A stretch of DNA of 11,754 bases from Candidatus Nanohaloarchaea archaeon (GTDB taxonomy: Archaea; Nanohalarchaeota; Nanosalinia; Nanosalinales; Nanosalinaceae), in contig JBDGSE010000037.1 of the NCBI GenBank assembly GCA_042217695.1, forward strand, positions 1 to 11,754, read 5' to 3'. Positions 36 through 9,721 of the stretch are shown one piece after another. A program made the translations under genes and the position numbers. A model generated the notes under the pieces. It was given only the letters and a program-made list of their open reading frames with translations, made no database searches and was not told the DNA's origin. Each line of letters begins with the position of its first letter. Position 1 is the first letter of the stretch.

Positions 36-55
36 TGCGAGGGCGAGGATTCGAA
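36..55 (-). repeat. 20-bp exact duplicate of the tRNA-Leu 3' end
   Basis: tgcgagggcgaggattcgaa at 36-55 is identical to 105-124. Confidence 0.95.
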
Positions 56-104
56 TGCGAAGCTGGCGCTTCTATGTTCGAATCCGGAGTAAAGCAAACC
101 TGTT

Positions 105-187
105 TGCGAGGGCGAGGATTCGAACCCCGGAACCTCTACAGGACAGCGCCCTCAACGCTGCGCCTTTGACCACTTGGCTACCCTCGC
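105..187 (-). tRNA. tRNA-Leu (anticodon GAG), CCA not encoded
   Basis: Reverse complement GCGAGGG TA GCC AAGTGGTCAAA GGC G CAGCG TTGAGGG CGCTG (long variable arm) CGGGG TTCGAAT CCTCG CCCTCGC A folds into a complete class II cloverleaf. Anticodon GAG is at 153-151. Confidence 0.95.
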
Positions 188-340
188 GAACTTCTGAAAG
201 TTCGATCATCACAAGGCATGCCGCGCATGCCTTTCAGGACCTGCCTATTGTTTTTGGAGGGTTGGCAAGCCGCTCTTGGCTACCCTCGCAATTGGTTACG
301 CTCAATTGATACGCAACAAGCCATGCTAGGCATGGCTTTC
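173..340. repeat. Degenerate tandem repeat (~102-105 bp period): tRNA 5' fragment + hairpin A + hairpin B
   Basis: Hairpin A: CGAACTT-ctga-AAGTTCG (187-204) and CAATTG-8nt-CAATTG (289-308). Hairpin B: AAGGCATGC-cgc-GCATGCCTT (213-233) and AAGCCATGC-tag-GCATGGCTT (318-338), both in an AC...TC context. Confidence 0.8.
275..289 (-). repeat. 15-bp exact duplicate of the tRNA-Leu 5' end
   Basis: cttggctaccctcgc at 275-289 is identical to 173-187. Confidence 0.9.
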
Positions 341-370
341 GAACTGAAGCTATAGAAGGTGTTCGTGAGC

Positions 371-426
371 TATTTTTTTAACTGGTTTGTTCCCTGCTCC
401 CGCAAGAAAAAACATACTTAAATTCT
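371..426. promoter_or_regulatory. Probable divergent archaeal promoters (tRNA-Leu leftward, ECF operon rightward)
   Basis: Minus-strand TTAAAAAAATA at 381-371. Plus-strand A-rich BRE-like tract followed by CTTAAAT at 417-423, about 30 nt before ATG 450. Confidence 0.5.
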
Positions 427-449
427 GTAGAGGTTAAACTCCGACACCG

Positions 450-1010
450 ATGGGAGGGGCCGCAGACGTTTTACCGGGCAGTTCGCCCGATTTGAAGGAT
501 GTTTCTGATTCTGTTGGATCCACTCTTACGAGACGTCTGGCGGCGACCGCCGCGCTCACCGCTACCGGCATCGCGGGACGCGTACTTTTACAACACTCTC
601 CCAGCGTGGAGCCCATCGTGGCTATAGCGGTGGGAATCGGATTCATTCATGACTGGAGGCACGGTGCATCCTCGGGAGCATCAGGTTTCTTCCTCTCCAA
701 CTTTCTCGTGTGGGGTGGACAGGGCCCGTGGACCGTCTTCCAGGTAATCGGTGCGGGAGCCGCGGGCGCCACGGGAGGCCTGTTCTCGAGGTTCTCTTCT
801 TCGAGAACCATGTTTTTCGCTTCGCTGGTCGCAGCGACCGTGCTCTACGAGTTTTCGGTGAACCTCGGTTCGCTGGTATACGGCATGGGGGCTTTAAACC
901 CGGCTTTCCTGGCAGCGGCGGTTCCCTTCGGCCTGATACATCTTACAAGTTCGATAAGCTTTGGTGCAATGATCTATGGATTTAAAGAACGGATTGGCAG
1001 GCTTTACTGA
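450..1010 (+). CDS. ECF transporter S component, probably cobalamin-specific (CbrT-like)
   Basis: About 6 hydrophobic helices, with GRVLLQHSPSVEP, SNF...GQGPWTVFQ and PFGLIH motifs typical of CbrT-like S components. Adjacent to a DUF4430 gene. Start is ATG 450 or TTG 492. Confidence 0.8.
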   Translation: MGGAADVLPGSSPDLKDVSDSVGSTLTRRLAATAALTATGIAGRVLLQHSPSVEPIVAIAVGIGFIHDWRHGASSGASGFFLSNFLVWGGQGPWTVFQVIGAGAAGATGGLFSRFSSSRTMFFASLVAATVLYEFSVNLGSLVYGMGALNPAFLAAAVPFGLIHLTSSISFGAMIYGFKERIGRLY

Positions 1011-1410
1011 ATCAGTGGAAACCGAGTACGTTGCGCTTGGAGTCGGATTACTCGCTGTGCTGCTCCTGGCGATGCAGCTACAGCCCTCCGTGAAGGGGGG
1101 AGAACAGATCTCGATCTCGCTGAAGGTCGACTTCGGCGAAAGGGTGGAGACCCGGAGCCTGACACTCTCCAACAACACAACCGCCTTCGAGGCGGTGAAC
1201 GGGAGCTTCGACGTGGAGTACAGGGAGTACGACATGGGCTACTTCATAACCTCGATAGGGAACGTCAGTATGGATTCGAACCATTCCTGGCTCTATTTCG
1301 TGAACTCGGAACCGGCGAAGAGGGCCGTCAACAGGTACCTCCTGGAGGACAACGACAACCTTACTTTCCGGTACCTCGAGAACTCGAAGGCGTCGAAATA
1401 CTTCGACTGA
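976..1410 (+). CDS. Membrane-anchored DUF4430 (transcobalamin-like C-terminal domain) protein, putative corrinoid-binding
   Basis: N-terminal TM anchor followed by TAFEA...GYFITSIGN...WLYFVN...Y.L...D.L.F.Y, the DUF4430 signature. Overlaps the ECF gene by 35 bp. Confidence 0.85.
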   Translation: MDLKNGLAGFTESVETEYVALGVGLLAVLLLAMQLQPSVKGGEQISISLKVDFGERVETRSLTLSNNTTAFEAVNGSFDVEYREYDMGYFITSIGNVSMDSNHSWLYFVNSEPAKRAVNRYLLEDNDNLTFRYLENSKASKYFD

Positions 1411-1419
1411 GGTTTCAGC

Positions 1420-1426
1420 TATAAAA
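1420..1426 (+). promoter_or_regulatory. TATA box for leaderless lipoate ligase gene
   Basis: TATAAAA lies 24-30 nt upstream of ATG 1450. Confidence 0.6.
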
Positions 1427-1449
1427 CTTTCAAAGAGTATGGAGTGTTT

Positions 1450-2469
1450 ATGAGGAGCGAGGCTTCTGTCAAGGTTCCCAGCGGCAAAATGGTAAAAGCT
1501 GCGGTTGATGTCCGCGAGGACCAGCTGGAAAACGTTTCCATACGGGGCGACTTCTTTATAGAGCCCCCTGAGGCGCTTGAGGAACTGGAAGAGGCGTTGA
1601 CCGGTCTTGACGTCGATGCCGAGAGGGCAGAGTACCTCGCGACCGTGGACGAGGTGGAGGGAAAGATGATAGGGTTCTCCGCCGAACACGTCTACGAGGC
1701 CATACAGGAGGCGGTAAAACAGACCCGTTGGAGGATAATAGATGCGGGGATACACTCCGAGGCGATGCACCACGCGCTTGACGAGGTTCTGCTTGAAAAG
1801 ATGGAAGAGGGAGATATGAGGCCGACCCTGCGTTTCTGGCACAGGAAGAACCCGGCGATACCTTTCGGCAGGTTCCAGTCCTACGAGGATGAGGTCCAGC
1901 AGGAATACGTTGAAGACAACGGTATAGAGGTCGTGAGGCGGATAACCGGTGGCGGGGCGATGTACTCGGAACCCGGAGACATAATAACGTATTCGATGTA
2001 CCTCCCTAAGGAGATGGTCCCCGAGGATGTCGAGGAAAGCTACGAAGAGCTGGACCGGTGGGCTGTAGAGGCGTTGAACGACCTGGGTGTAGAGGTGGAG
2101 TACCAGCCGCTGAACGATATCGAACACGAGGATGGAAAAATCGGTGGCGCCGCCCAGCTGAGGAAGCAGGGCTCGGTCCTGCATCACACCATGATAAGCT
2201 ACGATCTGGACACGGAGAACATGCTGAAAGCGTTGAGGGTCGGCAAGGAGAAGGTCTCCGACAAAGCCATAGAATCCGCGGAGAAACGTGTGGCGGTGAT
2301 AAGCGACTACATCGACCGTTCACGGGACGAGGTGATTGAAGCGCTGAAGGAGAGGTTCCAGGAAAGGTATGGAGGCGACGAGGATATGCTTGACGAGGAA
2401 CTGCTCGAAAAAGCGGAGGAACTGGCGGAGGAAAAGTTCTCCACCGAGGAATGGAACCGGAAGCTCTGA
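1450..2469 (+). CDS. lplA: Lipoate-protein ligase with the accessory (LplB-like) domain N-terminal to the catalytic domain
   Basis: N-terminal KVPSGKMV...I.GDFFIEPPEALEELEEAL accessory domain. Catalytic motifs PTLRFW, VVRRITGGGAMY, ND...KIGGAAQ, LHH and WN at the C-terminus. ATG 1450 is preferred over GTG 1444 from TATA spacing. Confidence 0.92.
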   Translation: MRSEASVKVPSGKMVKAAVDVREDQLENVSIRGDFFIEPPEALEELEEALTGLDVDAERAEYLATVDEVEGKMIGFSAEHVYEAIQEAVKQTRWRIIDAGIHSEAMHHALDEVLLEKMEEGDMRPTLRFWHRKNPAIPFGRFQSYEDEVQQEYVEDNGIEVVRRITGGGAMYSEPGDIITYSMYLPKEMVPEDVEESYEELDRWAVEALNDLGVEVEYQPLNDIEHEDGKIGGAAQLRKQGSVLHHTMISYDLDTENMLKALRVGKEKVSDKAIESAEKRVAVISDYIDRSRDEVIEALKERFQERYGGDEDMLDEELLEKAEELAEEKFSTEEWNRKL

Positions 2470-2499
2470 GTTTTTAAGTCTTTGATACACGGAGTATCC

Positions 2500-2937
2500 G
2501 TGGTGTTAACAGGTCTGCTGGAGGAGGCTGAATGGCAGAGAGTCGAGAAGAACTCATTTGCCGTCTCCGATTCTGAAGTACTTGGGATAGACCATCTGGG
2601 CAGCTGTATCGGTGTAGGTATCTACGACCCCCAGGATTCGAGGACGGCGCTCCTGCACGCAGGTACAAGAGAGAACACGGAAATCGAGGAGATCCTGGAC
2701 GCTTTCCTGGAGGAAATCGACTTCGAGTGGCCCTACGAGGCCCTGGCCGGGGGAACCATATCATCAGATTACGACCCTCTGATAGAGGACGACGTATACG
2801 AACAGGCCCGGGAAACCGTGGGCGAGGCACTGGAGGAAAGCGGCTTCAGATACCAGACAGCATGGAACGACCGTCCTGTATACAACAGGATGGCTGTATC
2901 CCCAGAACACGGGATCCTCTACGACGAGACGCGTTAA
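2500..2937 (+). CDS. CheD-like Cys-His amidohydrolase/deamidase
   Basis: LGSCIGVGIYDP.....LLH matches the CheD LGSC...YDP...H catalytic motif, and a later LAGG motif is present. Start is uncertain (TTG 2482, GTG 2500 or GTG 2503). TTTAAG at 2473-2478 favours ~2500. Confidence 0.7.
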   Translation: MVLTGLLEEAEWQRVEKNSFAVSDSEVLGIDHLGSCIGVGIYDPQDSRTALLHAGTRENTEIEEILDAFLEEIDFEWPYEALAGGTISSDYDPLIEDDVYEQARETVGEALEESGFRYQTAWNDRPVYNRMAVSPEHGILYDETR

Positions 2938-3452
2938 TAGTCCGGGTTCTTCTCTTCCACATCTTCCAGAAAGTTCTCGTGGCGGGCCATTACAAAGAAA
3001 AGATCGCTCAGACGGTTGACGTAGGCCAGCACCTCTCCCCTCAACTCCTCCTCGCTGTCGAGCGCCACCACTGCTCTCTCTGTCCTCCGGGCCACTGAAC
3101 GCGCCAGGTCGAGGTAAGCCGCCGATTCAGCTCCTCCAGACAGAACAAAATCTCTTATTTCAGGGCTTTCATCTCTCATAGCGTCTATCCAGTCCTCAAG
3201 CAGGTCGATATTTTCCTGGCTTATCTCTTTTTTGTGGTCTCGGTCGGCCAGCTCCGCCTGGAGTATATGGAGGTCGTTCTGTATCTTTTCAAGTTTTTCC
3301 TCTTTTCTCTCTGCTTTTACAGCGGCGAGACCTGTCAGGGAGTTCAGTTCATCGATGTTGCCGATGGCCTCTATCCTGCGCGAATCTTTCGATACTCTTT
3401 CACCCGAGAAAAGGTCTGTCCTGCCCTCGTCCCCTCTCCTGGTGTATACCAT
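2934..3452 (-). CDS. pduO: PduO-type ATP:cob(I)alamin adenosyltransferase
   Basis: YTRRGDEG.T.L..GERVSKD..RIEA.G..DELNS, ARSVARRTER and YVNRLSDLFFVMAR signatures. Confidence 0.95.
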   Translation of the reverse strand: MVYTRRGDEGRTDLFSGERVSKDSRRIEAIGNIDELNSLTGLAAVKAERKEEKLEKIQNDLHILQAELADRDHKKEISQENIDLLEDWIDAMRDESPEIRDFVLSGGAESAAYLDLARSVARRTERAVVALDSEEELRGEVLAYVNRLSDLFFVMARHENFLEDVEEKNPDY

Positions 3453-3490: not shown

Positions 3491-4765
3491 TTATCTCTCG
3501 GTGAAGACGAATCCTGTCACCGTCTGGTTCTTGAACGTGGAGAACTCCTCGCCCTTGCCTCCTATCTCGCCGTAACCGTAGAAACCTGCGACCGGGCACT
3601 CGAGGTGGTCCCGGAGCATCCTGATCTCGCGTTCCCGTTCCTCCTCCGTCATTATCTGGTTCCTGTTGGTGCAGTCGGTCACGATGCCGAAAAGTGGTTT
3701 CTGCCCGGGTTCAACGTGGTCAAACGCGTCTCTTGCCGCCTCCACCACCCGGTCTCTTTCGGCCTCCACCACGTGGATGGACTGGGTCTCCTCTACCTCC
3801 GAGGTCATGACCAGTCCATTATCCCGTGTAACCTTCAGAGGTGTTACGATACGGTAGTTGCCTGGCGATATCTGCTCGGCCAGCGATTTCTCCAGAGAGT
3901 ACTGGAAAACCCTGTGGATGTTCAACGGCGACTCGCCACGGAGTTTCATACCTATATAGCGTCCGATGACCCTCAGTTTCCGGCCAAGCGGCAGGTCAAA
4001 CATCTTTTTGAGGTCGGAGACGTCTTTACCTATGACATCGGCGTAGAACTCTGCGGCAGGTCTGCCGTTTATCTCCTTTATGACCCGGCCGTCGGATTCG
4101 CTCACCATGCCGCTCTTCAGCGTCTCATCGAACCCGTGAGCCTGACCTCTCCTTATCGGGTAGTCGGATTCTATGGCTGTGAGCACCACTGCATCATCGT
4201 ATACCTCTCCGTTGAGGAACTGGTAGGTCCTCCTCATCTCTACGTTGTCTCCTGCGGAACCACCGGATACCGGTATATCGGCATTTATCTCGCCGGTTAT
4301 CCCCTTCAGGACCTCGAACTCCACTCCCTCCTGTCTCTGTGTTAACCCTGCCATCAGGGCAAAAAGTATCCTGTGGCGCTCCGAGTCAAGGTAGTCCTCG
4401 TCCACCACCTCTCTCGCGGCAGCCTCACCTGCCTCAACAGGCCGGGAGTAGACATTCCTCGAGACGGCCGTGGTAAACTCTATCTCAGGGGAACCTGCCA
4501 GCATCAGCACAGCCGAATCCGTGGTGGAGCCTTCGTCAGATATCTCGCCGGCCGTGGATGCACCGACCCATTCAGCATCCTCTTCCTCCATCCTCTCGTC
4601 GAGGCCGGAGGCTAGTCCTTCCAGGTCGAAACCGGGAGCTGCGAAGAGAAAACCGAAATCCACACGCGCCATGTCGCTATAGGCCTTCTTGAACAGTTCT
4701 TTACCGGCTTCACGGCCGTCAACGTCTTCCAGATGCACGACAGATTCTCCCGCTTCTACGCCCAT
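3491..4765 (-). CDS. Stand-alone FIST N+C domain protein (424 aa)
   Basis: VGASTAGEI, GGSAGD...TYQF, EING.PA..Y, C..R...E and GFYGYGEI...F.NQT motifs. Start moved to ATG 4765 (MGVEAG), which matches the paralog's MGLDVG start and avoids overlap with the divergent gene. Confidence 0.9.
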   Translation of the reverse strand: MGVEAGESVVHLEDVDGREAGKELFKKAYSDMARVDFGFLFAAPGFDLEGLASGLDERMEEEDAEWVGASTAGEISDEGSTTDSAVLMLAGSPEIEFTTAVSRNVYSRPVEAGEAAAREVVDEDYLDSERHRILFALMAGLTQRQEGVEFEVLKGITGEINADIPVSGGSAGDNVEMRRTYQFLNGEVYDDAVVLTAIESDYPIRRGQAHGFDETLKSGMVSESDGRVIKEINGRPAAEFYADVIGKDVSDLKKMFDLPLGRKLRVIGRYIGMKLRGESPLNIHRVFQYSLEKSLAEQISPGNYRIVTPLKVTRDNGLVMTSEVEETQSIHVVEAERDRVVEAARDAFDHVEPGQKPLFGIVTDCTNRNQIMTEEEREREIRMLRDHLECPVAGFYGYGEIGGKGEEFSTFKNQTVTGFVFTER

Positions 4766-4776
4766 ACCTGTTAATT

Positions 4777-4822
4777 CCCTGTCAGGGTTGATATTGGTTG
4801 TCCCGGGAAGACGTTTTATTTT
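4777..4822. promoter_or_regulatory. Divergent promoter region between the FIST gene and the citrate-cleavage operon
   Basis: TTTTATTT at ~4813-4820 lies about 30 nt before ATG 4847. Minus-strand AATATCAA at 4795-4788 lies before ATG 4765. CCCTG-t-CAGGG palindrome at 4777-4787. Confidence 0.45.
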
Positions 4823-4846
4823 TCGCGGCGAAAGCTGTAGTGTCGG

Positions 4847-5959
4847 ATGAAACTGTACGAGCACGAGGCGAAAGACATCCTCGAGGAACACGGTATCGAT
4901 GTGCCTGGCTCCGAGGGACCCGAGTTCGTGGTGAAGGCACAGGTGCTGGCGAAGAACCGTAAGGAACAGGGAGGGATAAGGTTCGCCTCCTCGCTGGAGG
5001 AAGCCAGGGAACTTGCGGGAGAGATGCCGGAAACGATCTCGGGGAGAGAGGTGGAGGACTTCCTCATCGAGGACCGCGTCGATTTCGAGAAAGAGTTCTA
5101 TGTATCTTTCCTCTACGACACGGACACCAGGAATCCCGTGATGCTTTTCTCTTCCTCTGGTGGATCGGGAATAGAGGACCGTGAAGTGAAAAAACTGGTG
5201 CTGGAGGACGGGATGCAGTGGCGTTTCCGCGACTTCCTTTCACGGCAGGAGATAGACGACATGATCGGGCTGGGCTCCACGCTGCAGAAACTGTTCCAGG
5301 CATTCCTTGAAGAGGATGCCAGGATGCTCGAGGTAAACCCGCTGGCAAAGACCCCGGAAGGCTACGTTGTGCTCGACGCGATGATGGACCTTGACGAGGA
5401 TGCGTCCTACCGGCATTCCCGCGACCTTCCCGAGCGGTCGGACCTGGGACGCGGTAAAACGGAGAGAGAACTGGAAGCCGAAAAGATCGACGAGGACGAC
5501 CACCGGGGCGTGGCGGGCAAGTACACCGAGCTCGACGGCGATATCGGGATGATGCTTGCCGGCGGGGGAGCCTCGCTGACCAATATGGACGCCCTGATAG
5601 AGTACGGGGGAGAACCCGCGAACTATACCGAGTACGGCGGCAACCCTCCGACCGAGAAGGTCTACCGCCTGTCGAAAGTTATAATGTCGAAACCCGGTCT
5701 GAAAGGGCTGTGGCACGTCGGCGGGACCGCGAACAACACCGACATACTGCGGACGATGAAGGGATTCGTCCAGGCTCTGGAAGAGGAAAGACCCGGGTAT
5801 CCGATAGTCGTGAGGCGGGATGGGCCGCACGCGGACGAGGCCTTCGAACTTCTACGTGAGACCCGGGACGAACTCGGGTTGAACATGAAACTTTTCCGGA
5901 ACGACACGCCGATGACGCAAACCGCAGAAGTACTGATGGAGATGGTGGAACAGCAATGA
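4847..5959 (+). CDS. Citryl-CoA synthetase large subunit / ATP-citrate lyase beta-like subunit (ATP-grasp + citrate-binding domain; SucC superfamily)
   Basis: MKLYEHEAK, VVKAQV, EFYVS and LEVNPL..LDA ATP-grasp motifs. C-terminal AGGGAS..MD, ANYTEYGGNP, GGTANNTD and IVVRRDGP match the ACL citrate-binding domain rather than SucC (NGAGL, ANFLDVGG, VVRL.G). Confidence 0.85.
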   Translation: MKLYEHEAKDILEEHGIDVPGSEGPEFVVKAQVLAKNRKEQGGIRFASSLEEARELAGEMPETISGREVEDFLIEDRVDFEKEFYVSFLYDTDTRNPVMLFSSSGGSGIEDREVKKLVLEDGMQWRFRDFLSRQEIDDMIGLGSTLQKLFQAFLEEDARMLEVNPLAKTPEGYVVLDAMMDLDEDASYRHSRDLPERSDLGRGKTERELEAEKIDEDDHRGVAGKYTELDGDIGMMLAGGGASLTNMDALIEYGGEPANYTEYGGNPPTEKVYRLSKVIMSKPGLKGLWHVGGTANNTDILRTMKGFVQALEEERPGYPIVVRRDGPHADEAFELLRETRDELGLNMKLFRNDTPMTQTAEVLMEMVEQQ

Positions 5960-6027
5960 GCAGTTTGCTTGAAGTAGAAGACGTGGAAATCTCAAAGGAT
6001 AATGGACCGGGAGGTCTCGAACGATGA
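5956..6027 (+). CDS. 23-codon mini-ORF MSSLLEVEDVEISKDNGPGGLER (possible gene remnant or coupling peptide)
   Basis: ATGA overlaps at both ends (5956-5959 and 6024-6027). GGTGG SD-like motif at 5944-5948. Confidence 0.45.
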   Translation: MSSLLEVEDVEISKDNGPGGLER

Positions 6028-6629
6028 ACATACCCGTATTCGACATCGGTGATACGTTGCTCCCGTCACGAAGGATGATAAACAGGAAGGTCCATGAACA
6101 CACGGGGACGGAAAAACATTTCCCCATAGAGGAGTACAACATCTACGTCCCGGAAGAAGTGCAGAACTGGCTGGACGAGAACGGTCTCGAGGGAAACGCG
6201 GAGGAGATAACCAGGAGCTACCTGGACTGGGAGCGCTCGTTCTTCCGCGGCAACAGCGTCGTGGAAACGCTGAAAAAATGCAACCAGGAGCTGGGCACTA
6301 TCGGCTTCATCAGCGACAACTCGATAGCCGCCAAGAAGTTCTACCGGGAGCTGTTCCAGGAGCTCGGTGTCGAGTACAGGGGTTTCGTGGTCTCCGAAGA
6401 GGTCGGAGTGAAAAAGCCCTCCAGGGAGATATTCGAGGCCTTCCTGGATAAGCGGGAGAGACCCGCGGAAAAGTTCGCCTATTTCGGAAACAACCCGGAG
6501 AGAGATTCTGGCGCGGAAAAAGTCGGGATGGACTTCGTCTGGGTCGACAGGTACGACGACTTCGGTTCAGAATGGAGCGGCAAAACCATACAGGAGTTCA
6601 GCTTTGAAAAGATACAGGAGGCGGTGTAG
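6024..6629 (+). CDS. HAD-superfamily hydrolase
   Basis: FDIGDTL (motif I), ISDN (II), SEEVGVKKP (III) and FGNNPERD.GA (IV variant). SD GGAGGT at 6010-6015. Confidence 0.88.
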   Translation: MNIPVFDIGDTLLPSRRMINRKVHEHTGTEKHFPIEEYNIYVPEEVQNWLDENGLEGNAEEITRSYLDWERSFFRGNSVVETLKKCNQELGTIGFISDNSIAAKKFYRELFQELGVEYRGFVVSEEVGVKKPSREIFEAFLDKRERPAEKFAYFGNNPERDSGAEKVGMDFVWVDRYDDFGSEWSGKTIQEFSFEKIQEAV

Positions 6630-7523
6630 ATGGCCATAATAGTTGACGAAGACACGAAGGTGTTGGTACAGGGGATAACCGGGAGGGAGGCATCGGAAAA
6701 AGTCCCGGAGATGCTGGATTACGGGACCGATGTGCTGGCGGGCGTCACCCCGGGCAAGGGCGGACAGGAGGTCTCAGGCGTCCCGGTATACGATACCGTG
6801 TCGGAGGCCCTGAAGGAACACCCCAGGATAAACACCTCCCTGGTCTACGTCCCCCCCTTCGCGGCGAAGGACGCTATATTTGAATCACTGGAGAACGGTA
6901 TAGAGACCCTGAACGTCATCACCGAACGGATACCCACGAGGGATGCGTGGGAGATACACCGGGAGGCAGAGCGAAAAAACGCCACCGTCGTGGGCCCTAC
7001 CTCTGTCGGGATAATATCGCCCGGAAAATGCAAGCTGGGGCCTATAGGCGGGAACGAACCAGAGCGCGTCTACCGCGAGGGCAGGGTCGGCGTGATATCC
7101 AAGTCCGGCGGCATGACCACCGAAACGTCCTGGGTGGTGCGCCAGGCAGGCTTCGGGGTCTCAACCGCGGTCGGGCTGGGAGGCGACGTGATAGCAGGCA
7201 CAACTTTCGAGGACGCCCTTAAGATGTTTGAAGAGGACGACCAGACCGACGCGGTCGTGCTGTTCGGCGAGTTAGGCGGGACCTACGAGGAAAAAGCCGC
7301 CGAACTTCTCGACTCCGGAGATTTCTCCAAGCCACTTGTTGCGTTCGTGGCGGGGAAGTTCACCGAGGACATGCCTGAAAAGAAGTACGGCCACGCAGGA
7401 GCCATCATCCGGGGCGACAGAGGCAAACCCTCCGGCAAGGTAGAGGCTCTGAGGGATGCCGGGGCGCACGTGGCGGACGTCCACCACGAGATAGGCGAGA
7501 AGCTGAAGGAAGTGCTGGACTAA
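6630..7523 (+). CDS. Citryl-CoA synthetase small subunit (SucD-like CoA-binding/phosphohistidine subunit)
   Basis: [20 protein letters not shown]...GII.PG, SKSGG.T.E, GLGGD, GE.GG..EE and GHAGA (phospho-His). SD GGAGG at 6617-6621. ATG directly follows the HAD stop codon. Confidence 0.9.
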
Positions 7524-7560
7524 CCGGGACTATTTCAATATCTTTACCCCACTGTTCCAC

Positions 7561-8262
7561 ATGACAGACTGGAAGACCTCGATCTCTTCCTCGGGAGAAG
7601 ACGCTGTTGTACGCGGAGTCCCGCAGGAAGAGGTCATGGAGATGGATTTCGCCGACGCCATCTGGCTTTTACTGACAGGGGAGAAGCCCTCGGAGGATGA
7701 GTCAGAACTCTTCAACACCGTACTGTCATCAAGCATCGACCACGGCGTCGGGAACCCCTCGACCGTAGCATCGAGGACCGTGCAGAGCGGCGGCAACGGG
7801 ATGAACACCTCGGTCGGCGCCGGGATACTCGCGCTGGGAGACCTCCACGGCGGAGCCATCGAGGACTGCATGGCGATGCTTCAACAGGAGAAAGACCCTG
7901 AGGACATAGTCGAGGAACGGCTCGAATCCGGCGACAGGATCCCCGGGATCGGCCACAAGGTCTACGATGACGAGGATCCCCGGGCCAGGAAGATAATCGA
8001 GAAAGCGGAGGACCTGGGGCTCGATGGAGAATACACAGAAAAGATGAGGTCTGTCCGGGAAACGTTCGCGGAGGAAAAAGTCGAGCTGGTGATGAACGTG
8101 GACGGCGCAATCGCCGCGGTGATGTCAGACCTTGACTGGGACCACCGACTGGGTAAAGGCCTCTTCATAATCGCAAGGACTCCCGGACTCGTCGCGCATG
8201 TGAGAGAGGAGATGGACGAAGACCCGTTCCGGCGTGAAGACGGGGAATACACCGGAGACTAG
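7561..8262 (+). CDS. ccl: Citryl-CoA lyase (citrate-synthase-like fold)
   Basis: 233 aa, WKTSIS start, DHG..PS, LHGGA, IPGIGH..Y...DPRA, NVDGAIAA and ARTPGLVAH.REE. Too short for a full citrate synthase. Confidence 0.88.
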   Translation: MTDWKTSISSSGEDAVVRGVPQEEVMEMDFADAIWLLLTGEKPSEDESELFNTVLSSSIDHGVGNPSTVASRTVQSGGNGMNTSVGAGILALGDLHGGAIEDCMAMLQQEKDPEDIVEERLESGDRIPGIGHKVYDDEDPRARKIIEKAEDLGLDGEYTEKMRSVRETFAEEKVELVMNVDGAIAAVMSDLDWDHRLGKGLFIIARTPGLVAHVREEMDEDPFRREDGEYTGD

Positions 8263-8546
8263 CCGAGCTGCTCCCTGAGTTCCTCCGGGAGCTCCAGGTC
8301 CACATCGCCGTACTCGTCCTCGATGGCACGGGCGGACAGCGCGTATGCAACCGGCCCCATAACATTGTTGAACTGTTCGAGGATATCCTCCAGCGCTTTC
8401 TCACCGTTATCCACAGAGATCACCTCTCCGTCCTCGTCCAGTTCCACCTCCCCGGACTTGTTGGCCTGTGCCACGACGAAGTTCTTTCCCTGCGTGTCTA
8501 TGAGTTTCTGAACCACCACATTTATGATGTCCGCGTAGTCTGTCAT
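8259..8546 (-). CDS. Small acidic helical hypothetical protein (95 aa) translationally coupled to the FIST gene
   Basis: ATGA overlap with the upstream FIST gene (8543-8546). Acidic composition like the other cytoplasmic proteins. Confidence 0.8.
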   Translation of the reverse strand: MTDYADIINVVVQKLIDTQGKNFVVAQANKSGEVELDEDGEVISVDNGEKALEDILEQFNNVMGPVAYALSARAIEDEYGDVDLELPEELREQLG

Positions 8547-9721
8547 TGTCCTAGCACCTGTATCGATGCTGTTTCCTCATGGAAGCGGGGACGTCCGTTG
8601 CTGGTGGCGATCTGTCCGTAGGCGAACAGCCCCACCACCGGGGTGTCCTCCCCGACTTCCTCCTTTATCCTCTCCACTTCTTCCCGGGTCAGCTCCATAT
8701 CGTCGTAGACAGCGTGCCTGCCGGCACAGCTGAACACGAGGGCGGCATCCACCTCTTCTTTCTCCAGACCGGCGTTCTCTCTTGCCTCTCTCGCCGCCCG
8801 TCCGGCGGCATCCAGGAGCCGGGGTTTCTCCGCCCGCATAAGGTGGACCTCCAAGTTTTCCTTCACGGGAGCTCCCAGGCTGAAGCACCCGTCCTCATCG
8901 ATGTCGAGCGCGACCCTTAACTGGGGTTCCTCCTCTCCCAGGTCTATCCCCATCGGGGTCATGAGCAGAAAGCCCGGGTCCTGGGCGTTTTCCTCGCCGT
9001 AGATCTCGCTGTAAACTGTCAGAGGCCTTTCGCCGTCGAGCTCTCTGAGGTAGGTGGCGTCGGCATCCGTTATCTCATACGTGCTGGGTGTTTTCCGGAA
9101 CCCGTGGGCCTTGTCGCCACCGACTTTACCATCCCAGTCCACCACGGAGCAGACCACCGCGTCCTCCATGACCTCTCCATCGTAAAACACGTAGGTATGC
9201 TCGAAGCTGAGGTCGTCGCCCGCGAACTGGCCTGCGGTGGAGAAACCGTGTCCCAGGTAGTCAGTTATCCCGTCCAGGACGTGGACTCCGTGGCCGTGCA
9301 GGGCATCCGCGAATATGTTCACAAGTACATCTCTTTCATGGGTGCCGTCCTGCCTGAGCACGTACGGGGATATATCCTTTTCCAGGCCCTGGAAGGCCTC
9401 TTTGATGGCCTCCCTGCCTGCGTTGTAGCTGTGGTCGCTGAGTCCCTTCCCTATACCGATGGAAGCGTCCACGCCGTGGAACCCTGCCGCGACCACGGAA
9501 CCGGTTTCAGCCCCTTCAGCGATCTCCACGGTGCTCGAGGCCCCGATCACCGGTGTGTCGCCGGCGGCGTCTCCGGCCCCGGCCACTACCTCCTCCATGT
9601 CGTGGTCCGTGGATGAGAATACATAGACCAGGTCGGCGTTCTCTCCGCCGGCCTCTTCTACAGCTTTTTTGCCCGCCTCAAATGAGTCTCCGGCTTCCGC
9701 CTTTCCAACGTCAAGACCCAT
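8543..9721 (-). CDS. Stand-alone FIST N+C domain protein (392 aa)
   Basis: VIGASS..EI, AGDDLSFEHTY, ELDG.RP..VY, P.G, FSCAGR...E and GLFAYGQI...FH..T motifs. Confidence 0.92.
   Translation of the reverse strand: MGLDVGKAEAGDSFEAGKKAVEEAGGENADLVYVFSSTDHDMEEVVAGAGDAAGDTPVIGASSTVEIAEGAETGSVVAAGFHGVDASIGIGKGLSDHSYNAGREAIKEAFQGLEKDISPYVLRQDGTHERDVLVNIFADALHGHGVHVLDGITDYLGHGFSTAGQFAGDDLSFEHTYVFYDGEVMEDAVVCSVVDWDGKVGGDKAHGFRKTPSTYEITDADATYLRELDGERPLTVYSEIYGEENAQDPGFLLMTPMGIDLGEEEPQLRVALDIDEDGCFSLGAPVKENLEVHLMRAEKPRLLDAAGRAAREARENAGLEKEEVDAALVFSCAGRHAVYDDMELTREEVERIKEEVGEDTPVVGLFAYGQIATSNGRPRFHEETASIQVLGQ

Follow-up and report, generated by a model that had tools for sequence, protein, structure and literature searches.

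The window, the whole 11,754-nt stretch analysed here, is contig C31 of the source genome G000, a 757-kb assembly that is 83% complete. Close to its left end lies a tRNA-Leu(GAG) gene, accompanied by copies of parts of its own two ends and by two hairpin-bearing units upstream (window coordinates):

36–55, minus strand: 20-nt duplicate of the tRNA-Leu 3′ end, from the T-loop to base 73
56–104, minus strand: trailer insert between the tRNA and the 3′ duplicate, with a complement of the T-arm copy at 76–85, flanking a small hairpin
105–187, minus strand: tRNA-Leu(GAG), intact, without an intron
187–204, plus strand: hairpin A of unit 1, head subfamily A1; 7 bp, 4-nt loop; its base 1 is the complement of tRNA G1
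205–212, plus strand: A1 linker with the conserved unpaired ATCA
213–233, plus strand: hairpin B of unit 1; 9 bp, 3-nt loop
236–274, minus strand: body of a separate 5′-duplication module, common to relatives without the A1-B head
275–289, minus strand: 15-nt duplicate of tRNA-Leu bases 1–15, the second copy of the docking site
289–308, plus strand: hairpin A of unit 2, head subfamily A2; 6 bp, 8-nt loop with the invariant sequence GTTACGCT
309–317, plus strand: A2 linker with the invariant CGCAA
318–338, plus strand: hairpin B of unit 2; 9 bp, 3-nt loop; no target duplication after it
373–385, minus strand: TATA-like box, conserved at orthologous loci and identified by its conservation and position

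A first-pass annotation of this DNA had described the upstream region as two tandem units of ~102 bp. Its observation that hairpin A begins opposite tRNA G1 in both units holds at 187–204 and 289–308, and the linkers and both B hairpins (213–233 and 318–338), including the G-C to C-G swap, are as it described them. The 102 nt, however, is a spacing: the 15-mer opposite bases 1–15 of tRNA-Leu(GAG) occurs at 173–187 and 275–289, 102 nt apart, and is otherwise unique in the genome; only this 15-mer, hairpin A, the linker and hairpin B (~65 nt) recur. The segment 236–274 has no counterpart beyond the second unit, and its positions 257–269 form an imperfect complement of the 15-nt duplicate. The earlier account also omitted the 20-nt tRNA 3′-end duplicate at 36–55; the adjoining insert (56–104) has a near-identical counterpart behind tRNA-Leu(TAG) on contig C19.

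The TATA-like box lies 194 nt from G1 in the window, compared with 41–45 nt in three empty alleles, and both units are therefore likely to lie within the transcribed leader of the tRNA. Window positions 1–440 fold with z = −4.8. A contig from sequencing run X2 spans window positions 169–700 with one difference and a contig from run X1 matches 173–289 exactly; because these contigs cover the units, misassembly is ruled out, and since the two runs may represent the source sample, they show nothing further. At the Rfam gathering threshold, tRNA was the sole match in the window, and the heads (hairpin A, linker and hairpin B) match no known Rfam RNA. Rfam gave no riboswitch that might serve the downstream B12-related genes, a possibility we considered; loose ARAGORN predictions were noise, and a sigma-70 promoter scan was run on the window with a model that is inapplicable to archaea. 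The opposite contig end (11663–11754) also stops in the 3′ end of a Glu-like tRNA on the minus strand, followed by hairpin modules, and G000 contigs often break at tRNA/hairpin-module loci.

Alignment divides the heads into two subfamilies. The A1 heads (17 sequences) have a conserved stem, a variable loop and the ATCA linker, and the A2 heads (24 sequences) a variable stem, the invariant GTTACGCT loop and the CGCAA linker; hairpin B terminates both. Unit 1 of the window is an A1 head and unit 2 an A2 head. The two agree in 35 of 56 columns (62%), and unit 1 agrees with copies on contigs C16 and C2 in 40/50 and 40/52 columns and unit 2 with a copy on C36 in 44/54 (~80%). These alignments show the units to be separate copies of a gene-less hairpin-linker-hairpin cassette of ~52 nt.

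The claim that pairing is kept while sequence varies is borne out in both subfamilies. In an independent MAFFT alignment, the outer pair of A1 is CG in 12 sequences, GC in 3, AU in 2 and broken in none. Among 36 distinct model-aligned A1 matches, in an alignment fitted to the covariance model and so biased towards it, 95.5% of cells were paired and 12 of 15 pairs showed two-sided change (0/500 shuffles). For hairpin B of A2, 78% of cells were paired with 31 two-sided changes (0/500 shuffles), two of five measures did not exceed the shuffles, and these covariation counts, like those for A1, ignore kinship. The pattern search that the first-pass annotation had proposed returned matches across G000 and in relatives: the exact hairpin-B pattern is present in 19 of 61 genomes, with a single match for the reversed control, and elsewhere in G000 hairpin B lies before tRNA-Ile, behind tRNA-Gly, in three introns and at contig ends that bear tRNA fragments. 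Further hairpin modules, of the AGAAG...CTTCG and GAAAA...TTTTCG types, join the A/B head in composite inserts and occur in tRNA flanks and introns of G000, G005, G007, G010 and G012.

A covariance-model search of 71 genomes detected A1 in 41 and A2 in 43. Neither head was found in 7 of 42 family genomes, three of these seven being 96–99% complete; among 8 genomes outside the order, A2 occurred in none and A1 in two, as weak matches. Across GTDB the exact A2-B pattern gave 23 matches, 17 in entries titled Nanohaloarchaeota and 6 in entries titled uncultured archaeon. Thirteen of them are intron starts directly after base 37 and five lie antisense at base 1; the remainder follow base 73 (2) or a tRNA-end remnant (1) or lie at protein genes (2).

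Heads dock in three classes: antisense at base 1, as in the two window units, sense after base 72/73, and at the start of an anticodon-loop intron. A polarity rule holds: on whichever strand ends at the tRNA landmark, the head follows on its 3′ side. A larger set, in which tRNA loci are over-represented, has 69 of 105 heads at tRNA landmarks, with 27 at 3′ ends, all of these between −3 and +2 of base 73; the complete genome G046, which provides an unbiased set, has 13 of 20 heads linked to tRNA genes and 7 not, and G018 has none. The left end is fixed, with hairpin A first, and right ends vary; outward-facing heads at both ends occur in a few composites only (the C4 intron, L102 and L186). The first 1–3 bases of the head are frequently the last bases of the host, some junctions have no overlap, and upstream bases differ between insertion sites with no common target tetranucleotide. 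The 4-bp central helix of the BHB motif, formed by the anticodon loop and the intron tail, had 4/4 pairs in 35 of 49 introns, as scored in a best-of search without a null control; the window's own two units are not introns. The earlier suggestion of iterative insertion stands in so far as the units appear to be separate insertions. Array-like growth special to the tRNA 5′ end is not supported, because the same head is also found at tRNA 3′ ends, at both intron ends and at some protein-gene junctions.

Copy number varies among relatives, in which the alleles of this gene range from empty through partly filled to filled. Of the 19 orthologous loci, some place the box 41–45 nt from G1 and others carry different inserts. 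The orthologous locus of G017 and of G031 has the 5′-duplicate module without a head, and tRNA-Leu(TAA) of G017 is built like the window's locus but with A1 and A2 in exchanged positions. Lake contigs contain the joints 187–369/370 (empty), 188–260 (duplicate module only) and 187–340; the depth of this third joint equals that of a contig with ~90% identity across the adjacent gene. With joint sides as short as 19–34 nt, most of these joints come from other species. The tRNA-Lys(CTT) gene lacks an intron in G017 and G046; elsewhere its introns measure 70, 120 and 137 nt. The count of 0 introns in 28 tRNAs of G017 is biased, because the Rfam search that supplied its loci overlooks long introns.

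Duplicates of tRNA ends were counted in 138 tRNA genes of six genomes, a set that takes 30 loci per relative out of 34–48 matches and includes a few mis-called genes: a 3′ duplicate accompanies 26 genes and a 5′ duplicate 12, and controls gave 0/138, 0/138, 1/690 and 0/690. None was found at 24 genes in G014 or 27 in G018. Inserts between tRNA and duplicate measure 35–150 nt. Target duplications range in length from none to 26 nt, and many copies have none.

Heads also lie among protein genes. On contig C15 of G000 (L240:250–345), a 15-nt duplication encloses an A1 element that separates two protein genes. At C12:12040–12160 of the same genome, an A2 element interrupts a junction of overlapping stop and start codons; there the duplication is 13 nt long, and its last 8–9 nt also equal the first bases of the head. 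The empty alleles of two start/stop-codon sites have spacers of 1 and 6 nt, and hence selection largely accounts for the precise docking at these codons. We dropped the idea that copies at start codons mark the ends of leaderless transcripts, because the sites with empty alleles lie inside operons. At L296, L321 and G046 C1:262618, A1 or A2 heads begin inside the stop codon of apparently one large gene, which we take to have a ribonucleotide-reductase-like C-terminus; this stop codon, occupied in three genomes, is a possible hot spot beyond what short spacers explain.

We searched for an enzyme that might mobilise the cassette. As assembled (83% complete), G000 has no Y1 TnpA, Cas1, reverse transcriptase (RT), GIY-YIG or tyrosine integrase (PF00589) gene. 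Among 57 genomes, Cas1 and RT each occur in 5, GIY-YIG in 12 and Y1 TnpA in 3, none of the latter among 34 family genomes; among 67 genomes, tyrosine integrase occurs in 43 and DinB and an AddB-like protein in 34 each. RT is absent from the complete, head-bearing genomes G005, G013 and G017, and tyrosine integrase is absent from complete G013 and present in head-free G015. The RAYT family (PF01797) was not found in the family, and the cassette does not flank a RAYT gene as REP elements do. None of the seven families (Y1 TnpA, Cas1, RT, GIY-YIG, tyrosine integrase, DinB, AddB-like) follows head load across relatives; the co-occurring TnpA/RAYT or integrase genes that the first-pass annotation proposed to look for were not found in G000 as assembled, nor do they track the element in its relatives. 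An enzyme may be supplied in trans.

The ORFs adjoining tRNA loci include no recurring mobile cargo, and no ORF lies between a tRNA and its duplicate at the loci examined. Filtering the G000 ORFs for those that head-rich G046 has and head-free G018 lacks left 268, many of them shadow frames or G018 gaps; no transposase was recognised in this set, as judged from the first residues of part of the list and with one head-free genome compared. Phage and plasmid collections gave no match to the heads, and viral-contig searches gave 0 and 2 matches, both of the two by chance. Four of the five RT loci were inspected and none has a tRNA in the locus. The RTs at L086, L087 and L088 are ~333 aa long, two following small helical-bundle genes and one an Asn-rich frame; from their neighbouring genes they are presumably of the diversity-generating retroelement type. 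A 107-aa GIY-YIG-like ORF lies directly behind an intron-bearing tRNA-Lys (L229:1444–1764, G009), a single case.

With modest confidence, we lean towards a model in which the cassette is a non-autonomous element, each unit having arrived on its own when a DNA 3′ end, located where the tRNA acceptor helix begins at its base, primed the copying. The fixed left end, free right end, use of both strands, overlaps and variable duplication argue for primed copying over cut-and-paste or site-specific recombination. In this model, a new strand that has copied the tRNA gene, on either strand, would refold into a cloverleaf, leaving its 3′ end free to pair with the first bases of the cassette through microhomology and then copy the cassette. 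Return to the chromosome at the same place would leave no duplication, and return further back would leave one of 13–26 nt. Folding of the cloverleaf on either strand would account for both terminal docking sites, and a protein recognising the invariant loop and linker is a probable participant. Insertions would persist in three settings: external to the tRNA, next to a duplicate that makes the tRNA whole again, or at 37/38, a site at which the tail can close a splicing motif; the last would become introns, and site 37/38 would be a product of selection for that motif. In the window, the 5′-duplication module would have come first, followed by one head on each copy of the 5′ end, an order drawn from relatives rather than from a tree. 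Against primed copying, the invariant unpaired motifs suit a dedicated transposase, and pure template switching leaves them unexplained; junctions that share no bases with the host also tell against it. No priming intermediates were seen, and the mobilising enzyme was not found among the families searched in G000 and its relatives.

A dedicated transposase is the basis of one alternative, a PATE/REP-like element for which an HUH single-strand transposase, acting in trans from a virus, plasmid or host cell, would bind the hairpins and join the 5′ end of the head to a 3′-OH produced by a cut next to a helix. The lack of terminal inverted repeats (TIRs), near-terminal palindromes, fixed left end, insertion on both strands and many copies without duplication would all be explained, and the PATEs of Haloquadratum, as described, are defined by such features (PMC3119063). 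We nevertheless regard this reading as unlikely: Y1 TnpA occurs neither in G000 nor in 34 other family genomes, which also counts against the HUH/REP-type transposase proposed by the first-pass annotation, there is no common target tetranucleotide, duplications of 13–26 nt occur that PATEs do not make, and phage and plasmid collections are without a match, the two viral-contig matches being due to chance. Quite unlikely, in our judgment, is a route through RNA, in which RT would jump from processed RNA ends (the mature tRNA 3′ end, the 5′ exon end or the base-1 cDNA end) onto cassette RNA, and the chimeric cDNA would recombine into the corresponding gene. The three main docking sites are the RNase P, RNase Z and splicing-endonuclease sites, one template polarity covers all orientations, and cleavage of this leader by RNase P would free an RNA ending exactly at hairpin A; variable duplications and overlaps of 1–3 nt fit template jumping. 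The sparse occurrence of RT (5/57 genomes, with none in G000 or in the three complete head-bearing genomes above) speaks against it, as do the start-codon sites with a known empty allele, which lie inside operons and so are not transcript 5′ ends, and the 3′ junctions, to which no CCA was added at the loci inspected.

The heads could also be leader, trailer and intron structures of pre-tRNAs that the host selects as aids to stability or processing and that spread by gene conversion between tRNA genes. Pairing is maintained, both units probably lie in the leader, and in 7 of 12 cases the 5′ duplicate pairs best with its own insert when compared with the duplicates of other tRNAs; the window's own duplicate-insert pairing, however, is not significant (p = 0.12). 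Head polarity is opposite in leader and trailer RNAs, and hence the processing-nuclease signal offered by the first-pass annotation fits poorly. Together with the family genomes that lack either head (7/42, three nearly complete as given above) and the duplication-flanked copies away from tRNA genes on C15 and C12, this makes host selection of such structures an improbable origin. Relics of integrase- or casposase-driven insertion at tRNA attachment sites might be suspected from the 15-nt duplication, as in casposons (PMC5137440), and from integrated elements reported to be flanked by tRNA fragments (PMC3293823). This reading is largely refuted and very improbable, given that one head occurs at many tRNAs with locus-specific duplicates and no TIRs, that no ORF separates tRNA and duplicate at the loci examined, that Cas1 is found in 5/57 genomes, and that integrase is absent from G000 and G013 and present in head-free G015. 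A one-off local tandem duplication, which two similar units 102 nt apart might suggest, is refuted, with next to no probability left to it: each unit resembles distant copies more than it does the adjacent unit, and copies occur family-wide.

By analogy of behaviour, the nearest known systems would be YPAL/RU-2, followed by PATEs, the intron transposition of Thermoproteales and the TLRs of E. coli. The YPAL/RU-2 elements of Yersinia are described as gene-less, without TIRs, with internal palindromes and 3–26 bp duplications; like the cassette, they show variable duplication, targets at or beside dyad symmetry, and both empty and filled sites (PMC2229807). The cassette indeed combines variable duplication next to dyad symmetry with the lack of TIRs. 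YPAL is ~168 bp long, intergenic and enterobacterial, with no tRNA-end or intron role stated in the passages cited (PMC2229807); the likeness considered here is one of behaviour. The PATEs and SMRs of Haloquadratum walsbyi are transposase-free, and SMR-A inserts into the palindromes of other elements (PMC3119063). PATEs resemble the cassette in their hypersaline archaeal hosts and near-terminal palindromes without TIRs; they differ in making no duplication and deriving from IS605-type ends, SMRs differ in having TIRs, and the cited account describes neither tRNA-end targeting nor intron formation for them (PMC3119063). Set against the IS200/IS605 pattern, the cassette has the palindromes near its ends and no TIRs, but it can be flanked by duplications and has no fixed 4–5 nt target, and no cognate Y1 TnpA was found in G000 or in 34 family genomes.

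Transposition of tRNA introns in Thermoproteales was reported by Fujishima et al. 2010 (as cited in PMC4033280 and bioRxiv 10.64898/2026.10.13.758758), with related intron sequences in different tRNA genes, as seen here. Unlike those introns, as they are described there, the cassette also occurs outside tRNAs, on either strand and with DNA target duplications, so that its behaviour is that of inserted DNA as well as that of an intron. The E. coli TLRs are short units behind tRNA genes with an 18–19 bp copy of the 3′ end, in arrays of one to five; they are reported at 3′ ends only, and the cited account describes no common mobile head, 5′ duplication or intron form (PMC8144298). Casposons make a ~15-bp duplication at a tRNA gene, and repeated insertion at the same site yields arrays; unlike the cassette, they are described as large, TIR-bounded and Cas1-encoding, with a fixed target (PMC5137440). 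The cassette has neither a Cas1-solo gene nor TIRs; unlike in tyrosine-integrase islands, no integrase gene lies between tRNA and fragment; and, unlike a MITE, it lacks transposon-matching TIRs and a fixed duplication length, its duplications being variable. The literature searched does not describe elements of this kind from Nanohaloarchaeota.

An Asgard preprint (October 2026) treats the origin of archaeal tRNA introns as open; in the part cited, it examined copying, mobile elements and reverse transcription as routes, none of which proved general (bioRxiv 10.64898/2026.10.13.758758). Here, a single 52-nt head opens introns, lies in tRNA leaders and trailers, and also occurs as a free insertion with target duplication, and empty alleles occur in the same lakes. 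We class the element among small non-autonomous mobile repeats and consider a part in the gain of tRNA introns plausible. A wider claim extends the primed-copying model: the tRNA fold itself, on either strand, would be the landing signal of a structure-targeted mini-element that needs no element-encoded or recognisable transposase, and the element would be the source from which DPANN archaea gain new tRNA introns today, with intron, leader insert and trailer insert as three fates of one reaction. We hold this possible, though we would sooner doubt it than rely on it. This locus contributes the side-by-side docking of two subfamilies, a polarity rule that is symmetric between the strands, and a single gene in three allele states. 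The head sequence offers a bait for the mobilising protein and leads to loci where gain can be caught between strains. The element also explains the frequent contig breaks at tRNA genes of these genomes and the long-intron tRNAs that annotation misses or misnames.

At L099 (G005), two Gln-type tRNA genes 1.35 kb apart have an unusual region from D-arm to anticodon and are misnamed by ARAGORN; they may hold non-canonical introns. Elsewhere in the window, positions 450–3452 encode a membrane protein without a Pfam match, which we assume to resemble an ECF S component, a DUF4430 protein, a lipoate ligase and a cobalamin adenosyltransferase, possibly a cluster for B12 and lipoate salvage. The genes at 4847–8262 group an ATP-grasp/citrate-binding protein and a CoA-binding ligase subunit with a citrate-synthase C-terminal domain that stands alone; this cluster resembles a split ATP-citrate lyase or a citryl-CoA synthetase plus lyase, which would be noteworthy for a nano-archaeon with a fermentative metabolism. 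The minus strand also encodes two FIST N+C proteins, each standing alone, at 3491–4891 and 8543–9721.
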